Below are positions 8,479 to 60,673 of a DNA stretch of 64,000 nucleotides, piece after piece. How positions within the stretch are numbered: the stretch's first letter is position 1; each line of letters begins with the position of its first letter. Source of the DNA: Candidatus Moraniibacteriota bacterium (GTDB lineage: Bacteria > Patescibacteriota > Minisyncoccia > Moranbacterales > UBA1568); NCBI GenBank assembly GCA_030648835.1, contig JAUSGT010000002.1:309458-373457 (forward strand), given 5' to 3'. The notes under the pieces are model-generated. The model was not told the origin of the DNA and did not search any database. It was given only the letters and a program-made list of their open reading frames with translations. The translations under genes and the position numbers were made by a program.

Positions 8479-8643
8479 GTGTGCGCTCGGAGGGGATCTC
8501 CCTCGACTAAACTTTTGTCGTCACAAAAGTTTGTCTGGGCGCCGCTTCGTGATTTCGTCTGTTGACGAAATAACACTTCAGCGTTCGATTCCCTACGTAC
8601 GCCAAGCAGTTGGCGTACTCCTCGTGTGCGCTCGGAGGGGATC
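8479..8643 (-). mobile_element. tRNA-linked mini-insertion (family A): 20-bp direct repeat of the tRNA-Arg 3' end (8479-8498 and 8624-8643) flanking a 125-bp element
   Basis: gtgtgcgctcggaggggatc occurs twice; internal hairpin tcgactaaacttttgtcgtcacaaaagtttgtct; same family as 30.8 kb and 33.8 kb copies. Confidence 0.6.
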
Positions 8644-8700
8644 GAACCCCCGACCCTCTGGTTCGAAGCCAGATGCTCTAATCCACTGAGCTACGAGCGC
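8627..8700 (-). tRNA. tRNA-Arg (anticodon UCG)
   Basis: Cloverleaf: acceptor gcgctcg/cgagcgc, anticodon loop cttcgaa, T-arm ggttcgatcc; CCA not encoded. Confidence 0.8.
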
Positions 8701-9562: not shown

Positions 9563-9752
9563 TCTTATATCAAGTTGTATTGACTGGTTGTAGGTCATTT
9601 GATATGCTACGACCACTGTTTGAAGTATCCTTCAAACGAGTTCTTTTTTTTGGGCACATAGCTTCCGCCCAAGGCGGACCAGCCTTGGGCTGGCAGTTGG
9701 TAGGTGTATATAATCTCGGATTCTTAAGTTATTTTTTGAAGTATAAGAATTT

Positions 9753-9825
9753 GGGCACATAGCTCAGTTGGTAGAGCAGCGGCCTCTTAAGCCGACGGTC
9801 GCAGGTTCGATCCCTGCTGTGCCCA
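9753..9825 (+). tRNA. tRNA-Lys (anticodon CUU)
   Basis: gggcaca/tgtgccc acceptor, anticodon loop ctcttaa, T-arm ggttcgatcc. Confidence 0.85.
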
Positions 9826-10353: not shown

Positions 10354-10941
10354 TTACTTGTTCGGCGCGCCGCCCGACTGGCTGCTGTTGCCGATCGACA
10401 TGAAGGTGTTGCCGGCGAGCTCGAGGCCGTGAGCGTAGCGCGCGGGATAGCTGACCATGATCGCGGTCGCATTGGTCACGCCGTTTTTCTCAACGAGTGG
10501 CGCCTGGTGGCTGATGGCAGTTCTGCTTAAGCCCGGCGCGCCGATGTTGACGCTCTTCATCGCGTTGACGTCGACCATTTCTTTGCCGTTGATGTAGCCC
10601 GCACCGTCCATGTTTGCACCGAGGTTCGCCTGTTCCAGGGTGTTGGCGCCATTGAACGTGTACTTGGCAGCGAGGGAACCCAGCGCGGCAGCATCGATCC
10701 TGGTGCCGATCGTGGTAAATCCGGGCGCCATTTCTTTGGCTGCGGCGGTCAGGTTCATTTCGGCGTTGAGGGAACCCAGCTCGGCAATGTCAGGCAGCAC
10801 GGTGGCCTTTGCATCGAGCAGGCTGGCAGCGGTGAGTCCCTGGGTCGGTATCTGCGCCGGCGGTTGCAGTGCGATCGCGGGAGCGGCCAGCGCGGCGACC
10901 ATGGCAGCGGCCATCAGGGTGAAACGAAGTTTCGTTTTCAT
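10354..10941 (-). CDS. Secreted Ala/Gly-rich protein of unknown function (signal peptide MKTKLRFTLMAAAMVAALAAPAIA)
   Basis: ORF with clear signal peptide; gene region is markedly GC-rich relative to surroundings. Confidence 0.5.
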   Translation of the reverse strand: MKTKLRFTLMAAAMVAALAAPAIALQPPAQIPTQGLTAASLLDAKATVLPDIAELGSLNAEMNLTAAAKEMAPGFTTIGTRIDAAALGSLAAKYTFNGANTLEQANLGANMDGAGYINGKEMVDVNAMKSVNIGAPGLSRTAISHQAPLVEKNGVTNATAIMVSYPARYAHGLELAGNTFMSIGNSSQSGGAPNK

Positions 10942-11152
10942 CGGTGAGTCCTTTTCAGGTTGATGGTACGAAGATTGCAATCCCCGTTTAAGTGGAACAT
11001 CCTTCCTATTCCTAAACGGCAGGGTAGAGGGCATATAAATAAATTTCTAATATCTAATTCCTAATGAATGATCAGTTCATTAAATATGCTCTCCATTCTG
11101 CCGCCTCGGAATGAGGAAAACGCAGTAGAATATGTTGTTAAATGACTAAAAT

Positions 11153-20844: not shown

Positions 20845-21276
20845 TTAAGAGGGCTTTTTCCCAAGACTTTTTCCGTTGCGGACAATACCTGTTAAGACTT
20901 CCTTATATACTTCTATCTTTTTGGAAGGAATTCCTCGCAGTATTCTTCCAAGAATTTTTTGAATATCTTTCTCAATTTGAGCGAGCCTCTTTTTTCCCTT
21001 CACAGTAATGTCTACACATTTCACGCGTCTGTCTCGCGAGTGTTTCCCTATGACAATATTCTTCTTATACAAGAGCGTTTTGAGTGTCCGAGTAATCAGT
21101 GGCGTGCGGACAGCCAGTTTTCCTGCGATTTCCGTAACTCGAAGCTCTCCTTCGTCATGCACCAATTCCAAAAGCTTCCACTCCGTATGGGTGGTGCGGT
21201 ACTTGGCAAGAATTGGGTTGTGAAAAGCCTCAAGGGTACGATAGGCCTTCCACTGGAGCAGTCCCGTGCGGCGCAT
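20845..21276 (-). CDS. MarR-family transcriptional regulator
   Basis: Winged HTH (LRVTEIAGKLAVRTPLITRTLKTL...RRVKCVDITVKG). Confidence 0.75.
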   Translation of the reverse strand: MRRTGLLQWKAYRTLEAFHNPILAKYRTTHTEWKLLELVHDEGELRVTEIAGKLAVRTPLITRTLKTLLYKKNIVIGKHSRDRRVKCVDITVKGKKRLAQIEKDIQKILGRILRGIPSKKIEVYKEVLTGIVRNGKSLGKKPS

Positions 21277-21356
21277 AATGCTTAACTTAGTTAAATGATA
21301 TGAGTAGGATACCTCATTATCACAAACCAGTCAAGCACGTCACTGTGTTGCTTCTA

Positions 21357-21569
21357 TGTAGCCCCAAGGGGAGTTCCGCCTCGCTGTCTTTTGACAGCTT
21401 CGTTGCCCTGGGCAGCGCTGAATGCTCGCTTGCTCACATTCATCGACACTCGCCAGTCTCGCCTACGCTCGAAGGCTCGCACCTGCCCGTCCGACTCCCT
21501 AAAGAATATAAACAAAATTCCCACCCATGAAGATGAGTGGAAATTTTTGTTTGTAGCCCCAAGGGGAGT
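21357..21569 (-). mobile_element. tRNA-linked mini-insertion: perfect 18-bp direct repeat tgtagccccaaggggagt (21357-21374 and 21552-21569) flanking a 177-bp element at the tRNA-Glu 3' end
   Basis: Repeat read directly; second copy is the 3' end of tRNA-Glu. Confidence 0.6.
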
Positions 21570-21625
21570 CGGACCCCTCTTACCAGGATGAAAACCTGGT
21601 GTCCTAACCGATAGACGATGGGGCC
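21554..21625 (-). tRNA. tRNA-Glu (anticodon UUC)
   Basis: ggcccca/tggggct acceptor, anticodon stem accagg/cctggt with loop ttttcat. Confidence 0.8.
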
Positions 21626-21839
21626 CTTTTTCGCTAAAGCTTCATAAGGGCGAAGCCATATCTCTTCCTTGATATAAAGAAAAAGCAGTCTGTCAACTGC
21701 CTTGATATGGTAGCATAAAAACTTGTTTTAGCAAGAGTGAGTCGCATTGCTTTTTTATTGACAAATAAGGTGAGATTTTACATACTGGCGATGCTATCCA
21801 AATGGGTGGCACATTTCAAACAACCGGGAGTAGATACCA

Positions 21840-30727: not shown

Positions 30728-30874
30728 GTGCGCTCGGCAGAGAATCGGTCACAAATATTTTTCCTGACGGAAAAGTTTTTCGACTGCAGCGTTCCGACTT
30801 TCGATGCCTGACGTAAGTGAAGCAGCTCACTTACTCCTCAGCTCACTCACTTCATTCGTGTGCGCTCGGCAGGA
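30728..30874 (-). mobile_element. tRNA-linked mini-insertion (family A): about 14-bp duplication gtgcgctcggcag of the tRNA-Arg(CCG) 3' end flanking an approx. 120-bp element
   Basis: Direct repeat at 30728-30740 and 30860-30872; element end gctcactcacttcattcg matches the 33.8 kb copy. Confidence 0.55.
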
Positions 30875-30932
30875 ATCGAACCTGCATTTCATCCTTCGGA
30901 GGGATGTGTCTTATCCATTATACGACGAGCGC
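30861..30932 (-). tRNA. tRNA-Arg (anticodon CCG)
   Basis: gcgctcg/cgagcgc acceptor, anticodon stem catcc/ggatg with loop ctccgaa, T-arm ggttcgattcc. Confidence 0.75.
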
Positions 30933-32736: not shown

Positions 32737-32835
32737 GTGCGTTTGGCCCTCCTCCGTAAGACTTCGGACTGGTAAACCCTCCTTCGTAAAACTTCGGACG
32801 GGCGGGCAAGAAACTCCCTCGACTAAACTTCTGTC
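32737..32835. repeat. Composite repeat: 1.5 tandem copies of the 31477-type repeat followed by a truncated family-A element head (ctccctcgactaaacttctgtc) next to tRNA-Ser
   Basis: Read directly; shares gtcgactaaactt motif with tRNA-linked elements. Confidence 0.5.
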
Positions 32836-33656: not shown

Positions 33657-33729
33657 GCGCTTGTAGCTCAGTGGATAGAGCATCTGGTTGCGGTCCAGAG
33701 GGTCGCAGGTTCGATTCCTGCCAAGCGCA
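33657..33729 (+). tRNA. tRNA-Arg (anticodon read as GCG; unusual, ACG expected)
   Basis: gcgcttg/caagcgc acceptor, anticodon stem tctgg/ccaga with loop ttgcggt. Confidence 0.65.
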
Positions 33730-33894
33730 CACGAACGAAGTGAGTGAGCCGAAGAGCGAGTGAACTGTTTCACTCGCGCCAGGAATCGAACGCCGGAGTG
33801 TTATTTCGTCAGGAGACGAAATCACGAGGCGGTGCCTAGACAAACTTTTATGTCGACAAAAGTTTAGTCGAAGGAGTTTCCTGCCAAGCGCACA
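33715..33894 (+). mobile_element. tRNA-linked mini-insertion (family A): 17-bp direct repeat ttcctgccaagcgcaca (33715-33731 and 33878-33894) flanking a 146-bp element
   Basis: Element is about 85% identical (reverse complement) to the 8.5 kb copy, incl. hairpin gtcgacaaaagtttagtcga. Confidence 0.65.
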
Positions 33895-42984: not shown

Positions 42985-43075
42985 GGAGAGGTGGCTGAGC
43001 GGCTGAAAGCGGCAGGTTGCTAACCTGTTATAGGACCTTAAAATCCTATCGAGGGTTCGAATCCCTCCCTCTCCG
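42985..43075 (+). tRNA. tRNA-Ser (anticodon GCU), long variable arm; left boundary of island
   Basis: ggagagg/cctctcc acceptor, anticodon stem cagg/cctg with loop ttgctaa, long extra arm. Confidence 0.75.
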
Positions 43076-43123
43076 CATCAAGCATTTAGTATCGAGAGAG
43101 ACCCGAGAGCCTCGAGTTAATGT

Positions 43124-43834
43124 ATGAAAAATCAAGCACAGCACAGCCCCCTGGCTTTAACAACAAATGGCCTAATTGTGCCAGTTGGTTTTCCCGTAGC
43201 TTCATACGAATCAATCCACAGTATTGTAAGCACTGCTCAAGCGAGTCATTTATTGTATGAACACTACGCGGGAGCTTGGAATGCTTTAGCTTATCGTTTT
43301 AGGGCATCAATGGATCATGGTGATGCCTTCGTACTTCTGTTCAATAGTAATGGTCCTACACCTCCACCAGAAGAGCGGTACATGCAAGAGAAAGCCCTAT
43401 TTGATTTCTTTAGTGCAGGATTTTCGGTTTTTGAATCAACATTTTATGGTTTATATGTGATAGGCGCCTTTTTATCGCCCACTCTATTTTCTCTCTCATC
43501 CCAAAAAGAGCAACAGCAAATTACTCCAAACCGAACTAGAGATACATTTACCCGCGCATTTCCTTCCGATCCAATTTTGAATACCTTTTCAGCGCTGTTT
43601 ATGGATCCCGAATACCAAAAGTGGCGGGAAATTCGAAATGTACTTACGCATCGTACTGCGCCAGGTCGTCGAATATATGTAAGTATCGGAAGTGATGATG
43701 CACCACCTACAGAATGGAAGCTTAATAATAGCGTACTTGATGCTTCAATTGTGACAAATGGGAAAAGTGAACTTTCCCGTCTCTTAACTTGTTTATTAGA
43801 GGGCAGTGCAAAGTTTGTGGCAACACGATTATAA
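43124..43834 (+). CDS. Hypothetical protein (island cargo)
   Basis: 236-aa ORF, no motif recognised. Confidence 0.4.
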   Translation: MKNQAQHSPLALTTNGLIVPVGFPVASYESIHSIVSTAQASHLLYEHYAGAWNALAYRFRASMDHGDAFVLLFNSNGPTPPPEERYMQEKALFDFFSAGFSVFESTFYGLYVIGAFLSPTLFSLSSQKEQQQITPNRTRDTFTRAFPSDPILNTFSALFMDPEYQKWREIRNVLTHRTAPGRRIYVSIGSDDAPPTEWKLNNSVLDASIVTNGKSELSRLLTCLLEGSAKFVATRL

Positions 43835-43848
43835 AAATATTGATAAGT

Positions 43849-44823
43849 ATGGCAAAACGTAACCTAATAAAAATTCCTCAAGTAATACTTGAACGTATTC
43901 GCACCTTTGATCAAGATGATATTGTGGTTGCTTGCGCTAAACTTCTCCGCCCGGAAGATATTTCGCGGTATGCTCATTTAGGGTTGGCGTTAGTGGATGG
44001 AAAATTGATCATCCCGTCACCTGCCATACCGAATCCAGACGCCGGTCGATATTCTAAAGCAAATGTTGAGGGGTATGAAAAGATTCGAAAGGATTTACCA
44101 AAAGTGCCTAAGGAATTTTCGTTTGAAGCACCGGATTGGGGAGATTGGTCGAATGGATCTCATACAGTTGCATGGACACGCAACGTTTACCGGAGAGACT
44201 TTTATCCTCCTAAGGAAGTTGAACTTTCGATTACGTTAGTTGAGGAAAAAAGCACAGGTTTTGTTGTGAAGTTTGCAATTGATCAAGTGATGAATCGAAG
44301 AACTGAAAACTTTGAACAAGAATTATTTTACAACCTTAATCTTCTCCAAGAAAATGTTGGTGCGGCAGATGTTTTCCGATATACGGCATCTTTAGCTGAT
44401 TACGCAGCTACAATACGAGTAGACTGGGTAATTTTACCACCCGGTACCGTTGATGAGGTAATACGCGGAATGCTCAAAGGGAAGAGTAAAATTACTCCTG
44501 CGCAAGAGGCTACTATGAAGGAAAGGGTGACGTTGATGTCTCGGCTTGAACCGGAAGTATATATTGCTGGTAGTGACGGTTTTCTGCGATACTTTGGTGC
44601 GAAATTTGGTGACGATTTTGTAGCCTTTGAAAATATTCGCTATGGCAATGCAATTTATGTTATGTACGATTCATGGGAAGAGCTAAGTAAAAAGAGTCGA
44701 ATTGACCTTTTAAGTGGTCCGCGTGACAGTTTCGATCGCATCGAACATAGGGATGGATGGGAAGAACGATTTAGTGCGATGGTTCAGGGATACCGTGATA
44801 AGAAAAAAAATAAGAAGTCTTGA
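43849..44823 (+). CDS. Hypothetical protein (island cargo)
   Basis: 324 aa from MAKRNLIKIPQ; no motif recognised. Confidence 0.4.
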   Translation: MAKRNLIKIPQVILERIRTFDQDDIVVACAKLLRPEDISRYAHLGLALVDGKLIIPSPAIPNPDAGRYSKANVEGYEKIRKDLPKVPKEFSFEAPDWGDWSNGSHTVAWTRNVYRRDFYPPKEVELSITLVEEKSTGFVVKFAIDQVMNRRTENFEQELFYNLNLLQENVGAADVFRYTASLADYAATIRVDWVILPPGTVDEVIRGMLKGKSKITPAQEATMKERVTLMSRLEPEVYIAGSDGFLRYFGAKFGDDFVAFENIRYGNAIYVMYDSWEELSKKSRIDLLSGPRDSFDRIEHRDGWEERFSAMVQGYRDKKKNKKS

Positions 44824-44897
44824 ATCTGGTCCGAGAGCCTCGAAATGAGCAATAAAAAAAACAGCAGTTTTTACCGCTGTTTTTTTATTGTTTAATT

Positions 44898-46247
44898 TTA
44901 TGACAAAGCAGTTTCATATTTCCTGAGGATTAATTTTTTCTCTTTTGTCAGAATGAGTCGACTTTTGAGACTAGCGAGCAATTCCCGCTTTTCAATCATC
45001 TTTCCCTCTTTGAGAATATATTTAGCATACGTGCGTATATCAAAGGCCTCTTTCTTATCGACATCACTTTCTTTGCCATCCATTCTAAGAACCGTATGTT
45101 GGAACTTGTTGTAGCGATCGACCTCTTCTTCAAATTGTTTCTTCAGTCCGATTTCATTGATATCAATCTCATCGATAACATGGAGCATTTGTAAGATGAG
45201 TGCCTCTTCCCGCAAATAACCAAGCTTGCAAGTAAGATCTCTTGAGCGAGTGCATCCGTAGTAGATATACTTTGTTGTGCTGCCGTTTTTCAGTTTCTTG
45301 TATTTTTCATCAGCCGTAATGCCTGATCCGCAGAGTTCGCAGGTGAGGAGTTTGGTGAAGGCGAACTCTTTGCTGTCCCGTGTTATGCGATCGCGCTTCA
45401 GTTGCTCTTGGGTAAGTTCGAAAAGCTCTTTAGTAATAATGGGTTCGTGCTTGCCTTCATACCATTTACCACTCCCTCTTGGAAATTCAAAGGGGCCAGA
45501 GTAGAAAGATGTCTGGAGTATGCGATAAATGTTCCCGAGTGAAAGATTTTTGTTACCTTTAGACTTGAAGTTGATATCAAATTTGAGCCAGTGATAAACT
45601 TTCCGCCCGCTCCAGCGTTCGTAAGCCACTCTTTCAAACATTTTTCTGATGACTGGTCCGCGCTCAGGATCAACAATGACTTGGCCTCTACGATCAGGCG
45701 AGGTGACATTGAGATACCCGGTTGGCGCGCACGTTGGCCACATGCCCATCTCACAGCGCATACGGAGACCACGCTTCACATTCACGCCTCGATTATCATT
45801 TTCCAGTTTCGCTTGTGAGCCGAGAATCATCAGAAGAAACTTCTCATTGGGAGAATTTGTGAAAGATTGTCCGAAGGTACGAATTTCTTTGAGCTGTTTG
45901 GAATCCATCAGATCCACCAGTGATCCGAGGTCACCAGCATTTCTGCTCAATCGATCCGGCGCCCAGGTAAGGATGCCATTGAATCGATCTTTCCTGATGT
46001 CCTCAATGAGTTCGTTGTATACTGGCCGTTGTCCTGAGTTTTTGGCTGAATGGCTTTCCCTTCGAATCTCTATAATCTCTAGTCCATCTCGCTCAGCGAT
46101 CTGGAGCATTTCCTTTACTTGAGAATCTATGGAAAGCACCTGTCTTTCCTCTGATTCACTGCTCTTTCGAGCGTAGAGGCAGTACCTCGTTTTTAGTGGT
46201 ATTTCTGCCTCTACAGCTATTCGATTGGCCGGACTGTGTATATTCAT
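44898..46247 (-). CDS. Large serine recombinase
   Basis: YARKSS catalytic Ser region, recombinase domain, Cys4 zinc ribbon (CELCGS...YYGCTRSRD), C-terminal coiled coil. Confidence 0.85.
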   Translation of the reverse strand: MNIHSPANRIAVEAEIPLKTRYCLYARKSSESEERQVLSIDSQVKEMLQIAERDGLEIIEIRRESHSAKNSGQRPVYNELIEDIRKDRFNGILTWAPDRLSRNAGDLGSLVDLMDSKQLKEIRTFGQSFTNSPNEKFLLMILGSQAKLENDNRGVNVKRGLRMRCEMGMWPTCAPTGYLNVTSPDRRGQVIVDPERGPVIRKMFERVAYERWSGRKVYHWLKFDINFKSKGNKNLSLGNIYRILQTSFYSGPFEFPRGSGKWYEGKHEPIITKELFELTQEQLKRDRITRDSKEFAFTKLLTCELCGSGITADEKYKKLKNGSTTKYIYYGCTRSRDLTCKLGYLREEALILQMLHVIDEIDINEIGLKKQFEEEVDRYNKFQHTVLRMDGKESDVDKKEAFDIRTYAKYILKEGKMIEKRELLASLKSRLILTKEKKLILRKYETALS

Positions 46248-46363
46248 AGGTTTGTTCTTTACCCAATGAATGACGCAGACCGATGAACTAGTCCAGACCC
46301 CTCAAAAAGCCCTCAAACTGCCTATAATTTCACATTTTTGACAGAATGGAAGTGCACAAACAA

Positions 46364-47830
46364 TCATATAATCCATATCCTTGGTATGATCGGCGGATCT
46401 TCCATAGTGCTTAAAACGACGTTTGAAAACGCATCAGCAAGATCATCGTGAGCCTCAACACCGAAATGCACGATCTGATTAATTAACTCCTCGCATCCTT
46501 CTCGTGGAAAGAGTATTTTTCCGCTCTTGACTGCATAGGCTGTCAGTATGAGTCGCGTGCGCTTATCTTGATTTCCTGGTCTCGTTGTTTTGACCTTTCT
46601 GATACCCTCGCTTTGCAACTGTTGCGGTAGAGACCTCTGATACGCAACATCTTCAATAACAAATATAGGATGTTTGTCATTCTCTTTAAAGTAGGAACTA
46701 TCTATTGCTTTGCACATGTCCACTGTTTCTGGGAAATCCATCTTCCTATTTACTATTTGTGGCAAGATATATACCCTCAAATCTTTCCCGTCGCCATACA
46801 GCATTGCCGGTACCATGGCCGTATAATCCGCTGTGTCCTTTTTTGAGATCGCCAGGTCAACCCCGATACGCACTTCAACGTGTTTGTCATACCCTTGGCA
46901 ATCCTTTTCGCCATGCGGTAACTCATCATAAAATTGGATCCATTCTCGGTGAATAGCTTGTTCTTCATCGGCAACGATGTGAAGCATATATTCTCGCTCC
47001 CAAGCAAATTCGTTTCCCGCTTTTCTTTTTTCACTTTCAATATCTTCCATAGAAAGATATTTTCCAGGCCATAAAATCTCCTGACCTCTTATGATGGGGA
47101 ATTCTTTGAATACGCCATCGATTCTTTCTTTTTCTACATCTTCCTTGATTCGCATAAGAAGCGAATCTTCGTGAAGCAGATTCCCAACGATAACCAGTCT
47201 CGTATTGCGATCTCCTGTAGGAATAACTTCTGCGGTCAGCCACTGATATGTCTTATTTCTTCCTTCGCGAGTCTTGGTAGAAGCCATGTCTTCCACATCG
47301 TCACAGATAATAAGGTCTGGTCGATGTTGATTGTGCCGCAAACCACGGATACTTTGTTCGCGAGAAGCAGCTGTAATTCGGGCATTGAGTTGAGAAAATA
47401 CAAGAGACGATGAACCCCATTCATCGGACTCCTCACGAAATGGCCCAAGATCATTCTTGAGAGTCGCGTTATTCTCTAGCTCTTGCCGGAGGTTCATCAT
47501 ATGTTGCTTCGCCTGTGATTGAGTCTGGCAAAGGATGAGCGCAAATTTTTTCTGTTGTCTGCCAAGAATCGCCCAGATTGGGTAGGAGGTGGTAAGTATC
47601 GTAGATTTTCCGCTGCCTCGGAAAGCGACAACGAAGAAATTACCAGCATTTTCGTTTTCCGAAAGATCAAACATCTCTGCTTGGAACTGAGCGGTCGGGT
47701 ATTTAACGTAATGGGCGAAGTAAAAATGGAAAAAGTGCCAGTGGCTTTCTTTAATGATTGCCACTCTGACTTTTCGATCCCTGATCATCGCCTCCGCTAA
47801 CCCCGGGGTTATTGTCCTTCTGTTGTTCAT
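46364..47830 (-). CDS. Phage terminase large subunit
   Basis: Walker A AFRGSGKST, Walker B ICDDVED, C-terminal RNaseH-like nuclease (IGVDLAISKKDTADYT). Confidence 0.8.
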   Translation of the reverse strand: MNNRRTITPGLAEAMIRDRKVRVAIIKESHWHFFHFYFAHYVKYPTAQFQAEMFDLSENENAGNFFVVAFRGSGKSTILTTSYPIWAILGRQQKKFALILCQTQSQAKQHMMNLRQELENNATLKNDLGPFREESDEWGSSSLVFSQLNARITAASREQSIRGLRHNQHRPDLIICDDVEDMASTKTREGRNKTYQWLTAEVIPTGDRNTRLVIVGNLLHEDSLLMRIKEDVEKERIDGVFKEFPIIRGQEILWPGKYLSMEDIESEKRKAGNEFAWEREYMLHIVADEEQAIHREWIQFYDELPHGEKDCQGYDKHVEVRIGVDLAISKKDTADYTAMVPAMLYGDGKDLRVYILPQIVNRKMDFPETVDMCKAIDSSYFKENDKHPIFVIEDVAYQRSLPQQLQSEGIRKVKTTRPGNQDKRTRLILTAYAVKSGKILFPREGCEELINQIVHFGVEAHDDLADAFSNVVLSTMEDPPIIPRIWII

Positions 47831-48221
47831 AAGATTGTGTCGTTATTTGATTTACTGAAGATAATCGCAGTGCTTCGCGAACGATCTCTTCCTGCTCTGG
47901 AGTAAGCACATCCTGAGACTGAATGTTGGCCGTTACTTCTACGCGCTCACGGAATTTCTGATGTCGGTGCCGGAGCCAGAAGCTGATCGCTTGATAACTC
48001 TTATCTCTGATAAGCGAAATGAGCTGAGATTCAGACATGTCGTTGATAAGCGCCTCGCCTTCGCTCAAAGCTTCTTCGAGTGATTGGCGAAACTTCTCGT
48101 CCTCATCTCGCCAGCGGTAGACGGAAGAACGCGCGACACCGACCTTTTCGCACGCCACCTGGATAATGGGAATCTTGCGGAGTTGCTCGAGAAATAAAAT
48201 CTTGGCTCGATCCTTTTTCAT
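47751..48221 (-). CDS. Terminase small subunit-like HTH protein
   Basis: N-terminal HTH VGVARSSVYRWRDE; immediately upstream of and overlapping terL. Confidence 0.5.
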   Translation of the reverse strand: MKKDRAKILFLEQLRKIPIIQVACEKVGVARSSVYRWRDEDEKFRQSLEEALSEGEALINDMSESQLISLIRDKSYQAISFWLRHRHQKFRERVEVTANIQSQDVLTPEQEEIVREALRLSSVNQITTQSYEQQKDNNPGVSGGDDQGSKSQSGNH

Positions 48222-49549
48222 AAGATTTTTTTCGGCTTTAATCCGGTTAATTTCGACCAGCGATTCAGAATCACCTCAGCGTAGATGGGGCTTTTTTCCA
48301 TCAGAAAACACTTGCGCTGCATTTTCACCGCTGCAATCAAAGTCGAACCGCTTCCACCATAGGGCTCAAAGATGAGATCGCCTCGCTTGGTCAGTATCTT
48401 GATGTAGGGAATAAGTATTTCCAGAGGTTTCGTGCCGAAAATAATTCCCTGTCCGGAAGATTTTTCATCGGCAGCGATATGCTCAATAAAATCAGTTGGG
48501 CAATACTTCTTGCCTTTGCCATAAGATTCCCAGTGGGGACTGCCCGAGGTTGCGAAAAGCGCCGTTTCGTATTCGGTTTGAAGCAATGCATCCGATTCTG
48601 GTTCAACGTTCAGCTCAACCTTGCCCGAAGTGCCGACCATTGCGAAGTCATGCTTATTGAAGAATTTATATTTGGCGCTAAATCCTTGAACGCGATTGGG
48701 GATATGCCAAATAATTGTATTTCTGTATTTCCAATGTTTTTCTAACTCATTCCAGATAGTCCGAAGATTTTTTGGATTCTCATAGACGATGATCGAAAAG
48801 TCTGGCTCCTGAATCTTGGCGACATTGTTCATCCAGAGTTCGGTAAAGTTGTCCGGGAGTGTTTCAGTGCCTAGATACACTCGATCGCGTTTTAACCCGA
48901 AGCCTTTGGTTACATTGCCGTTTTTCTTTTTCTTACCCTTGAGGTAATCCAGAAGATACGGAGGGTCCGTGAAGCACATATGCGCCTTATGTCCGTCAAA
49001 AAGTGTTAGAACATTTGCTTCAATTGTGGAATCCCCAATCATTACTCTGCTACCGTTTAGGTCGTATACTTCGCCGCTCTTTACTTTGATTTTTGTTATG
49101 TCTAACTTCGCCAGTTCTTTCTCTAAATCAAATACTTCTGGCGTTTCATCAATTCCAAAAATTTCGTCCATTTCTTCGCTCGAGAACCCAACGCTCCCGA
49201 GGAACTGTTCGCTGAAGTTGGAAAGAATATCCCAATCGAACTCGCCGGTGTTTTTATTCAGGCGAATATTCAGTTCCTTTTCTTTTTCCAAATCAGGAAT
49301 AGAAATGTATACCACTGGTACCTCTTTGATGCCGAGCTTCTTGGCCATAGCCAGGCGGAAGTGGCCACCGATGAGAATGTTCATTCGTTCCGATGCCGAA
49401 TTTACTACGAACGGGTCGACCAACCCGAATCGTTTGATACTTTCCTGAAGCTGGGTTTCTGCCTCCTTGCTCCATTTGCGCGGATTATATTCTGACGCCT
49501 TGAGGAGCGTGACGTCGACGTACTGCACCTGCAATTTTTCTTTTGGCAT
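48218..49549 (-). CDS. ParB-like nuclease domain fused to N4/N6 DNA methyltransferase (phage-type orphan MTase)
   Basis: N-terminal ParB/Srx motif (YNPRKWS...GGHFRL), MTase motif IV TDPPY and motif I FEPYGGSGST. Confidence 0.8.
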   Translation of the reverse strand: MPKEKLQVQYVDVTLLKASEYNPRKWSKEAETQLQESIKRFGLVDPFVVNSASERMNILIGGHFRLAMAKKLGIKEVPVVYISIPDLEKEKELNIRLNKNTGEFDWDILSNFSEQFLGSVGFSSEEMDEIFGIDETPEVFDLEKELAKLDITKIKVKSGEVYDLNGSRVMIGDSTIEANVLTLFDGHKAHMCFTDPPYLLDYLKGKKKKNGNVTKGFGLKRDRVYLGTETLPDNFTELWMNNVAKIQEPDFSIIVYENPKNLRTIWNELEKHWKYRNTIIWHIPNRVQGFSAKYKFFNKHDFAMVGTSGKVELNVEPESDALLQTEYETALFATSGSPHWESYGKGKKYCPTDFIEHIAADEKSSGQGIIFGTKPLEILIPYIKILTKRGDLIFEPYGGSGSTLIAAVKMQRKCFLMEKSPIYAEVILNRWSKLTGLKPKKIL

Positions 49550-60389: not shown

Positions 60390-60673
60390 GGGGTTTTTTT
60401 TCAGAGAGTAAAAAAATAGTCAGGTACCATTTTGGTAGGAATTTTCTCAGCCCTGGTTCGTTTTTAGTGGCTTGATTTATTCTTCAAAAAGAGTAGGATA
60501 CAAGCACAACTGAATAGTGAATTATCTAGAGAGTGGCGAGAGCACTGGCTCACTGACCCACCGGCAACCCTTGGCAACAAGAAGGTGCCCCATCCAGCCC
60601 TGGAAAGGGAAAGATATCGGTCGATTCTTTCTCTGTCTCTGGACAGAGTTTTTGATTTTCTAACGATAATACT

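Follow-up and report, generated by a model that had tools for sequence, protein, structure and literature searches.

The question raised by this locus is what kind of sequence separates a tRNA gene from a second, exact copy of its own 3' end. The window, i.e., the whole stretch of 64,000 nucleotides (64 kb) under analysis, belongs to a Candidatus Moraniibacteriota/Moranbacteria MAG (Parcubacteria, Patescibacteria), and the 18-mer TGTAGCCCCAAGGGGAGT occurs in it exactly twice, at positions 21357-21374 and 21552-21569; the chance expectation is approximately 0.01 matches, and none of 100 shuffled sequences gave two. The proximal copy (21552..21569, minus strand) matches exactly, in the tRNA register, positions A58 to 74 (plus one nucleotide) of the host gene, tRNA-Glu(UUC), located at 21553..21625 on the minus strand by ARAGORN and by Rfam (RF00005, 53.8 bits). 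The distal copy (21357..21374, minus strand) is also an exact match and lies 195 bp downstream of the proximal one in the reading direction of the tRNA; its first bases pair with an inverted segment described below, closing the element. The exact 18-bp duplication of the tRNA-Glu(UUC) 3' end proposed by the first-pass annotation is therefore confirmed, both for the two copies and for the placement of the tRNA. The possibility that the 18-mer might be part of a longer or of a low-complexity duplication was checked as well, and neither turned out to be the case: identity stops just outside the 18-mer, dropping beyond its edges (23 nt at 91%). An assembly artefact is excluded for the 177-bp insert, because a separate Logan assembly (L001) has it letter for letter. 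The distal copy is followed by CA, as in the gene, the tRNA genes considered here having no encoded CCA; the idea that it might be a retro-copy of a mature tRNA, with A58 acting as the reverse-transcriptase stop, was rejected because CA and not CCA follows.

The host gene itself is unusual. In this lineage, the T-loop of tRNA-Glu is TCCGACT, with a C at position 55 (window 21553-21625; L002-L021), where U is nearly universal in tRNAs, and the 21-mer at the 3' end of the gene, loop included, is present in 20 species-representative genomes (L002-L021). In the syntenic relatives L105 and L110, the T-loop of tRNA-Glu is TTCGACT instead.

The gene lying downstream of tRNA-Glu is marR (20845-21276, minus strand), preceded by a promoter-like site, TTGACT-17-TATCCT (21306..21334, minus strand), which was disclosed by a promoter scan and whose conservation in relatives was assessed by alignment. 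It had been proposed that marR is divergent and that the insertion sits in its promoter region; this has to be corrected, because marR is located on the same minus strand as the tRNA, co-directional with it, and the promoter block is left intact, the element ending approximately 22 bp upstream of the conserved -35 box. Homology with the relatives picks up again right after the distal repeat.

Following the direction of the tRNA, the layout of the locus comprises the tRNA, a hairpin, an inverted copy of part of the tRNA, a structured core, and the distal repeat. The hairpin (21514..21547, minus strand), retrieved by a terminator scan, is terminator-like; it is located directly 3' of the tRNA, is made up of 15 pairs, and is followed by a T-rich tail. 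The inverted copy (IR-L; 21489..21499, minus strand), missed in the first reading of this sequence, corresponds to GGGAGTCGGAC, i.e., the exact reverse complement of tRNA positions G53-C63; it lies at position +54 and includes the unusual TCCGACT loop with the lineage-specific C55 variant. The core, approximately 115 nt long (21375..21488, minus strand), was defined by an alignment of 19 copies, RNAalifold, and a covariance model (R1), and contains, in this order, GGGCAG..GCGAG, hairpin 1, CGAGTGTCG, hairpin 2, GCGCTGCCCAGGGCAACGAAG, hairpin 3, and CGAGGCGGA. No conserved ORF is present in the 177-bp insert. The tRNA 3'-end repeat is thus more than an att scar, a simple duplication of that type predicting neither the host-matched inverted copy nor the structured core.

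A read-through transcript embracing the tRNA and the element is predicted to fold far better than shuffled sequences (z = -5.1), the proximal 3' part of the tRNA pairing with the inverted copy and the tRNA body pairing with the distal repeat; this stability is a direct consequence of the repeats themselves. The element alone is no better folded than shuffled sequence (z = -0.6). Despite the pairing between the tRNA body and the distal repeat, a T-loop intron was rejected, because an intact tRNA and a terminator precede the insert and splicing would not be needed.

The pattern is found at four of the nine tRNAs of the window. Inserts of 125-146 bp, referred to as family A, follow tRNA-Arg TCG, CCG, and GCG (8479-8700, 30728-30932, and 33657-33894); their inverted T-loop copies are located at +29 to +61, their direct copies comprise 13-20 nt of the 3' end of their own tRNA, and their hairpins differ from copy to copy in a compensatory manner. 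The three tRNA-Arg inserts thus share the layout of the tRNA-Glu insert (referred to as family B) without being related to it in sequence, as had been stated: the covariance model R1 of family B, run on the whole window with the filters off, left family A unrecognised (approximately 3 bits) and found no second family-B copy. Twenty Moraniibacteriota loci retrieved by means of the tRNA-Glu 3' 21-mer display this pattern too, after tRNA-Glu, Tyr, Trp, Thr, and Ser genes. A family-A right-end fragment, AGAAGTTTAGTCGAGGGAGTTTCTTGCC (90-95% identity over 22-31 nt), is present at 32805-32835, 3' of tRNA-Ser(UGA); it looks decayed or displaced, because the remnant that it carries is tRNA-Arg-like and not tRNA-Ser-like.

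Other copies of family B were searched for by means of a metagenome scan with the core 18-mer CTGCCCAGGGCAACGAAG, which returned 81 loci; approximately 28 of them are true family-B copies, the remainder being chance matches inside ORFs. A scan of viral contigs with the same 18-mer gave no matches. At least eight tRNA species act as hosts (Glu(UUC), Glu(CUC), Trp, Gln, Gly, Ser, Tyr, and Ala), and all the 17 copies for which an upstream tRNA was identified are located downstream of that tRNA and co-oriented with it. One of the contigs, from another Patescibacterium, encodes a PEP synthase 92% identical to a 'Patescibacteria group' MAG protein.

The tRNA-derived segments of these copies follow their hosts. 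The direct copy, which typically corresponds to the 17 nt A58-74 of the host, is exact in 7/17 cases and carries one mismatch in 4/17, being shorter or interrupted in the rest, while most copies contain the inverted host segment from G53 to approximately C64 at +42 to +70. The loop type of the IR-L (GTTCGATT, GTTCGAAT, or GTCCGACT) is that of the host in 11 out of 11 properly extracted copies; beyond the T-loop (positions 61-69), the match to the host is modest (5.0/9 vs. 4.1/9; 111/10000 in a permutation test). A hairpin with a T-run comes after the tRNA in 12 of the 13 distinct host-linked copies, although its sequence is not conserved. In some copies (L026 and L048), the distal repeats contain a mismatch, which suggests a weaker constraint on them. 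Units of the same family can be arranged in tandem (L080/L045 and L023), and one orphan copy without a tRNA (L055) was found. In the tRNA-Tyr locus L076 (oriented extract 559-605 and 758-800), the hairpins located after the tRNA and after the distal repeat have the same stem, and each loop is the reverse complement of the other (GTCC and AGGAC); the second one looks like a flipped copy of the first.

Family B is absent from Rfam and from the literature searched. When Rfam 15 was run on the window, on eight Moraniibacteriota loci, and on eight family-B loci (with gathering thresholds and with E<=10), no family covering the element was retrieved, the only matches being tRNAs, spurious miRNA hairpins on a long palindrome, and one sub-threshold RtT match elsewhere. 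The finding of a conserved scaffold of approximately 115-130 nt followed by a variable 17-nt segment matching genomic sequence might recall a guide-RNA gene, i.e., a scaffold with a variable 17-nt 3' guide, similar to the omega/reRNA of TnpB, that would target the tRNA gene or the tRNA. This is very improbable: the putative guide is always the 3' end of the adjacent tRNA itself, a second, inverted tRNA-derived segment is present on the other flank, no TnpB, IscB, or Cas-like gene recurs near the family-B loci, and no Rfam guide-RNA family matches.

The distribution of the family also bears on another interpretation of such a repeat, according to which a large prophage or genomic island would have inserted at tRNA-Glu and later been deleted almost wholly, leaving the two 18-mers as its attL/attR scar. 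Repeats of tRNA 3' ends are in fact the classical signature of an integrase-mediated insertion, and a prophage-like region encoding a large serine recombinase (44898-46247) is indeed located in the window; but serine integrases make no 17-18 bp repeats, the same layout is found at three tRNA-Arg genes within 25 kb, and the 177 bp match a family that is conserved, covaries, and recurs at numerous tRNAs of numerous genomes, so that the scar hypothesis can be considered as effectively refuted. The prophage-like block itself (42985-49549) starts just after tRNA-Ser(GCU) (42985-43076), and besides the recombinase it harbors a terminase large subunit (46364-47830) and a ParB-N6/N4 methylase fusion (48218-49549).

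The alignment of 19 distinct family-B copies revealed 40 invariant columns, including GGGCAG and most of CGAGGCGGA, with CTGCCCAGGGCAACGAAG being necessarily invariant, as it served to retrieve the copies. In the consensus fold, a first, closing helix joins the inverted and the direct tRNA-derived segments and exhibits compensatory changes; it is accompanied by an invariant GGGCAG/CTGCCC helix and by two hairpins rich in compensatory changes. Compensatory double changes were observed at 14 of the 33 pairs; 95.5% of the cells are paired vs. 86.6% in shuffled alignments, and the double-change cells are 61 vs. 17.6, with none of 500 shuffles reaching the observed values and with slid controls giving 35-45% pairing. 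The covariance model R1 assigns to the copy in the window, which is one of its 19 training sequences, a score of 126.3 bits (E 1e-39; 21355-21504), and finds an independent, decayed copy in L012 (37.8 bits). A different role for CGAGGCGGA, as the pseudo T-stem of a tRNA-like minihelix, was rejected, given that CGAGGCGGA is invariant while the T-stems of the hosts differ.

On the whole, the element is real, structured, and non-coding, and belongs to a large family conserved in Patescibacteria. Judging from the alignment, in which compensatory changes maintain the hairpins and no variation is seen in the single-stranded motifs, a single-stranded fold is under selection; whether it is formed by RNA or by single-stranded DNA is a distinction that covariation does not allow. 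These data bear on the idea that local duplication or unequal crossing-over has produced the insert as a by-product devoid of function, the likeness between copies being due to a recent common copy. Unequal crossing-over does act on sequences of this kind, as witnessed by the tandem units (L080 and L023) and by the 3.14 x 178-bp array of E. coli; nevertheless, the core is found at different tRNA species in different lineages, and the compensatory substitutions in many stems, together with the 40 invariant columns, speak for purifying selection, so that a mere by-product is hardly credible.

The organization of the orthologous locus in related species was analysed by fetching the GH1/tRNA-Glu(UUC)/marR neighbourhoods via the MarR homologues, and empty, differently occupied, and inverted states were disclosed. 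A precise empty joint would read tRNA and then directly TAGAAGCAAC. In L105 and L108, the tRNA is located on the opposite strand and is followed only by a terminator, with no element, while in L107 (the closest relative, with 88% MarR identity) and in L104, neither the tRNA nor the element is present upstream of marR. L106 harbors what remains of a tRNA-Glu 3' end, then a hairpin and an inverted copy, and lastly the truncated core of a further family (D), which abuts the marR promoter. In L110-112, the tRNA is co-directional with marR and is followed by two elements of other families in tandem; tandem units are also present in L012 and L020, the locus in the window being a single unit. Since the relatives are empty, remnant-bearing, or filled by other families, it appears from this comparison that orthologous tRNA loci acquire, lose, and exchange such elements, which can also form tandem arrays. 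As for the inverted state, the segment comprising the tRNA-Glu and the promoter region (window 21553-21760) is inverted relative to GH1 and marR in L105 (2640-2800) and in L108, and not in L110; an inversion between the tRNA 3' end and its inverted copy is one possible cause of the arrangement in L105 and L108.

A Pfam search on the 30 ORFs of the window revealed no tyrosine integrase/recombinase, transposase, HUH enzyme, or reverse transcriptase, and the clustering of the ORFs located within approximately 4.5 kb of 26 family-B loci yielded no recurrent recombinase: the clusters consisted of housekeeping genes in synteny and of spurious ORFs spanning the element. Thus, of the miniature element integrating at tRNA 3' ends postulated by the first-pass annotation, the element stands, being discrete and bounded by a copy of the 3' end, whereas neither an integrase nor an integration mechanism was found; likewise, the generality claimed for this genome is borne out for the pattern, with integration being an inference from it.

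It is nonetheless conceivable that the insert is a miniature integrative element consisting of DNA only, lacking any RNA function and inserted at the T-loop/3' end of the tRNA by a recombinase supplied in trans. In single-stranded DNA, the two copies, inverted and direct, might then fold as a mimic of the target duplex, as attC and the CTX site do, and the repeat would be an attachment-site duplication. A folded single-strand attachment site of this type, with an enzyme acting in trans, is by analogy a serious rival. It would account for orthologous sites being either empty or occupied, for different families being arrayed at the same tRNA, for the fixed orientation, and for a repeat that extends from the T-loop to the end of the tRNA, as in classical tRNA attachment sites; moreover, the host-matched inverted copy pairs with the repeat, the terminator hairpin travels with the core of another family (C) in two genomes (L012 and L110), and the invariant single-stranded motifs could be protein-binding sites. 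On the other hand, no tyrosine recombinase, transposase, or HUH enzyme is encoded by the 30 window ORFs or recurs at the 26 loci, the viral-contig scan gave no copies, and a double-stranded circle of approximately 180-220 bp would be a poor substrate for recombination. Furthermore, a fixed attP cannot explain how a single core family is associated with the ends of at least eight tRNA species, and the identity to the tRNA starts from A58 and does not run across the 7-nt loop, unlike the T-loop crossover region. All in all, the DNA-only interpretation is rather doubtful, with perhaps one chance in a few.

The insert is flanked by direct repeats of the tRNA 3' end, as integrative elements are, with no cognate recombinase found; in contrast to the integrase-mediated insertions known at the T-loop of tRNAs, it is 177 bp long and without an integrase gene, its identity to the tRNA begins at A58 and does not embrace the whole loop, an additional host-matched inverted copy is present, and the same core is combined with many tRNA ends. 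With MITEs, REPs, and REPINs it shares the small size, the non-coding and structured nature, the multi-copy and intergenic occurrence, and the paired ends; it differs from them in that the paired ends are copies of the host tRNA that change with the host, in the strict position and orientation relative to tRNA genes, and in that no cognate transposase was found. Differently from MITEs, there is no short fixed target-site duplication, but a tRNA segment of 17-18 nt at a fixed register. The likeness to integron attC sites and to the CTX phage site, which is an analogy only, lies in the arrays of short units each ending in the same site and in the imperfect inverted repeats able to fold into a duplex mimicking the target; here, the units contain no ORF and the point of attachment is a tRNA.

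A closer counterpart is found in E. coli, to which a lead was provided by the sub-threshold RtT match (26.7 bits, threshold 45) obtained with a Tyr-linked element of another family in L017. The 178-bp repeats of the E. coli tyrT/tyrV locus, reportedly first described by Egan and Landy in 1978, correspond to the rtT RNA (gene rttR, Rfam RF00391). In this locus, the tRNA is followed by an inverted copy of the T-arm (+60), by hairpins, and by 19 nt of the tRNA-Tyr 3' end copied directly from A58 onwards, the direct copy being repeated three times in tandem with a 178-bp period (3.14 x 178 bp). Such sequences belong to the tRNA-linked repeats (TLRs), which are found in tRNA or rRNA operons and are recognised by a terminal stretch of 18-19 bp that repeats exactly the 3' end of the upstream gene; strain K-12 has 22 of them at 10 loci, including the 5S-linked rrA/rrB/rrF, with one to five units per locus (PMC8144298). 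The rrA/B/F elements are located between dual terminators, and read-through transcription and processing have been shown for these three only; the tRNA-linked TLRs are described there as having no known function, and no origin is proposed for them in that paper (PMC8144298).

The window element lies directly after tRNA-Glu, on the same strand, with an 18/18 identity to its 3' end; as in E. coli, the repeat starts at A58, an inverted T-arm is present (at +60 in tyrT/tyrV and at +54 here), and, counting the tandem loci of family B and of related families, one to several units occur per locus. The differences concern the phylum, i.e., Patescibacteria (Moraniibacteriota), the core, which is different and strongly conserved, with three hairpins, and the end of the repeat, which here stops at position 74 because these tRNA genes have no encoded CCA; moreover, many sequence families coexist here and replace one another at the same tRNA. 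Concerning the sequence, RtT (RF00391, gathering threshold 45 bits) gave no match at E<=10 in the window segment 21200-21800 or in the eight family-B loci, and R1, with the filters off, assigned 2-4 bits to the E. coli tyrT repeats, a score that is not significant, so that no sequence homology is demonstrated. Hence, by position, 3'-end identity, and number of units, the element is a TLR, albeit one outside the RtT sequence family. The body of the rrnB TLR contains GGATTTGAAC, which is inverted T-loop-like, followed by a GTTGCGAAGCAACGG hairpin, and recalls GGAATCGAAC and GCTGCCCAGGGCAACGA of family B; there is thus a hint that 5S-linked TLRs derive from tRNA-linked ones. The widely used rrnB T1-T2 terminator region (L113, NC_000913.3 4171757-4172056) includes the TLR with GGATTTGAAC, the host gene being that of the 5S rRNA.

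The interpretation that we favor, with a probability of roughly 0.58, is that the 177 bp represent one copy of a TLR-type non-coding module belonging to a conserved Patescibacterial family, including the steps of RNA release and recombination outlined hereinafter. By analogy with rrA/B/F, transcription from the tRNA gene would read through the first hairpin; the repeated tRNA 3' end would then act as the same 3'-processing signal that operates in the tRNA, leading to the release of a stable RNA closed by a stem. Read-through into the element may be rare, because a good terminator-like hairpin separates it from the tRNA. The copies would spread between tRNA genes and turn over by recombination via the tRNA-derived repeats and the universally shared T-loop sequence, with the inverted copy supplying complementarity to the target tRNA gene; recombination through the repeats and the shared T-loop sequence is the most economical proposal. 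No mechanism is known to us by which a core passing to another tRNA would have its inverted segment as well as its direct one re-matched to the new host, and this counts against the proposed scheme. A broader and more speculative view, rather unlikely, would see TLR-type elements as widespread structured, non-coding cassettes of overlooked mobility, from Enterobacteria to Patescibacteria, that home to tRNA 3' ends via the inverted copy, complementary to the T-loop/T-stem of the target gene, and are arranged in integron-like arrays of exchangeable RNA modules, the 3'-end copy serving both as a recombination site and as an RNA-processing signal.

To our knowledge, TLRs have hitherto been treated as a peculiarity of enteric bacteria, and their layout is now seen in a very distant lineage with tiny genomes. 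This points to a general class of non-coding modules attached to tRNA genes that has so far been overlooked. Family B and the turnover at the GH1/marR locus turn a single anecdote into a comparative dataset and yield testable rules, namely that the repeat starts at A58 and that the inverted copy ends at G53. From a practical viewpoint, the repeats made by these elements disrupt assemblies, and the elements could be wrongly annotated as att scars.

Some other repeats and structures were noticed in the window and in the related loci. An exact 15-nt duplication (9649-9663 and 9750-9764) involves the 5' end of tRNA-Lys(CUU) and three upstream bases, the other copy lying upstream, at a distance of 101 bp from the gene; between the two copies there are a GC-rich hairpin and a TATAAT-like box. 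This duplication is a 5'-end counterpart of the 3'-end repeats. In L014 (6267-6326) and L021 (251-312), tRNA-Glu(UUC) is followed, after a spacer of approximately 41 nt, by a copy of approximately 35 nt of the 3' half of the tRNA; this copy starts in the anticodon stem and is a longer and different duplication, more similar to a classical att scar. A 19-nt direct repeat (95% identity; 10672-10690 and 10768-10786, spaced 96 bp) lies in or near the ORF at 10354-11034, and a SAM riboswitch (RF00162, 53.8 bits) is located at 60519-60618 on the plus strand.
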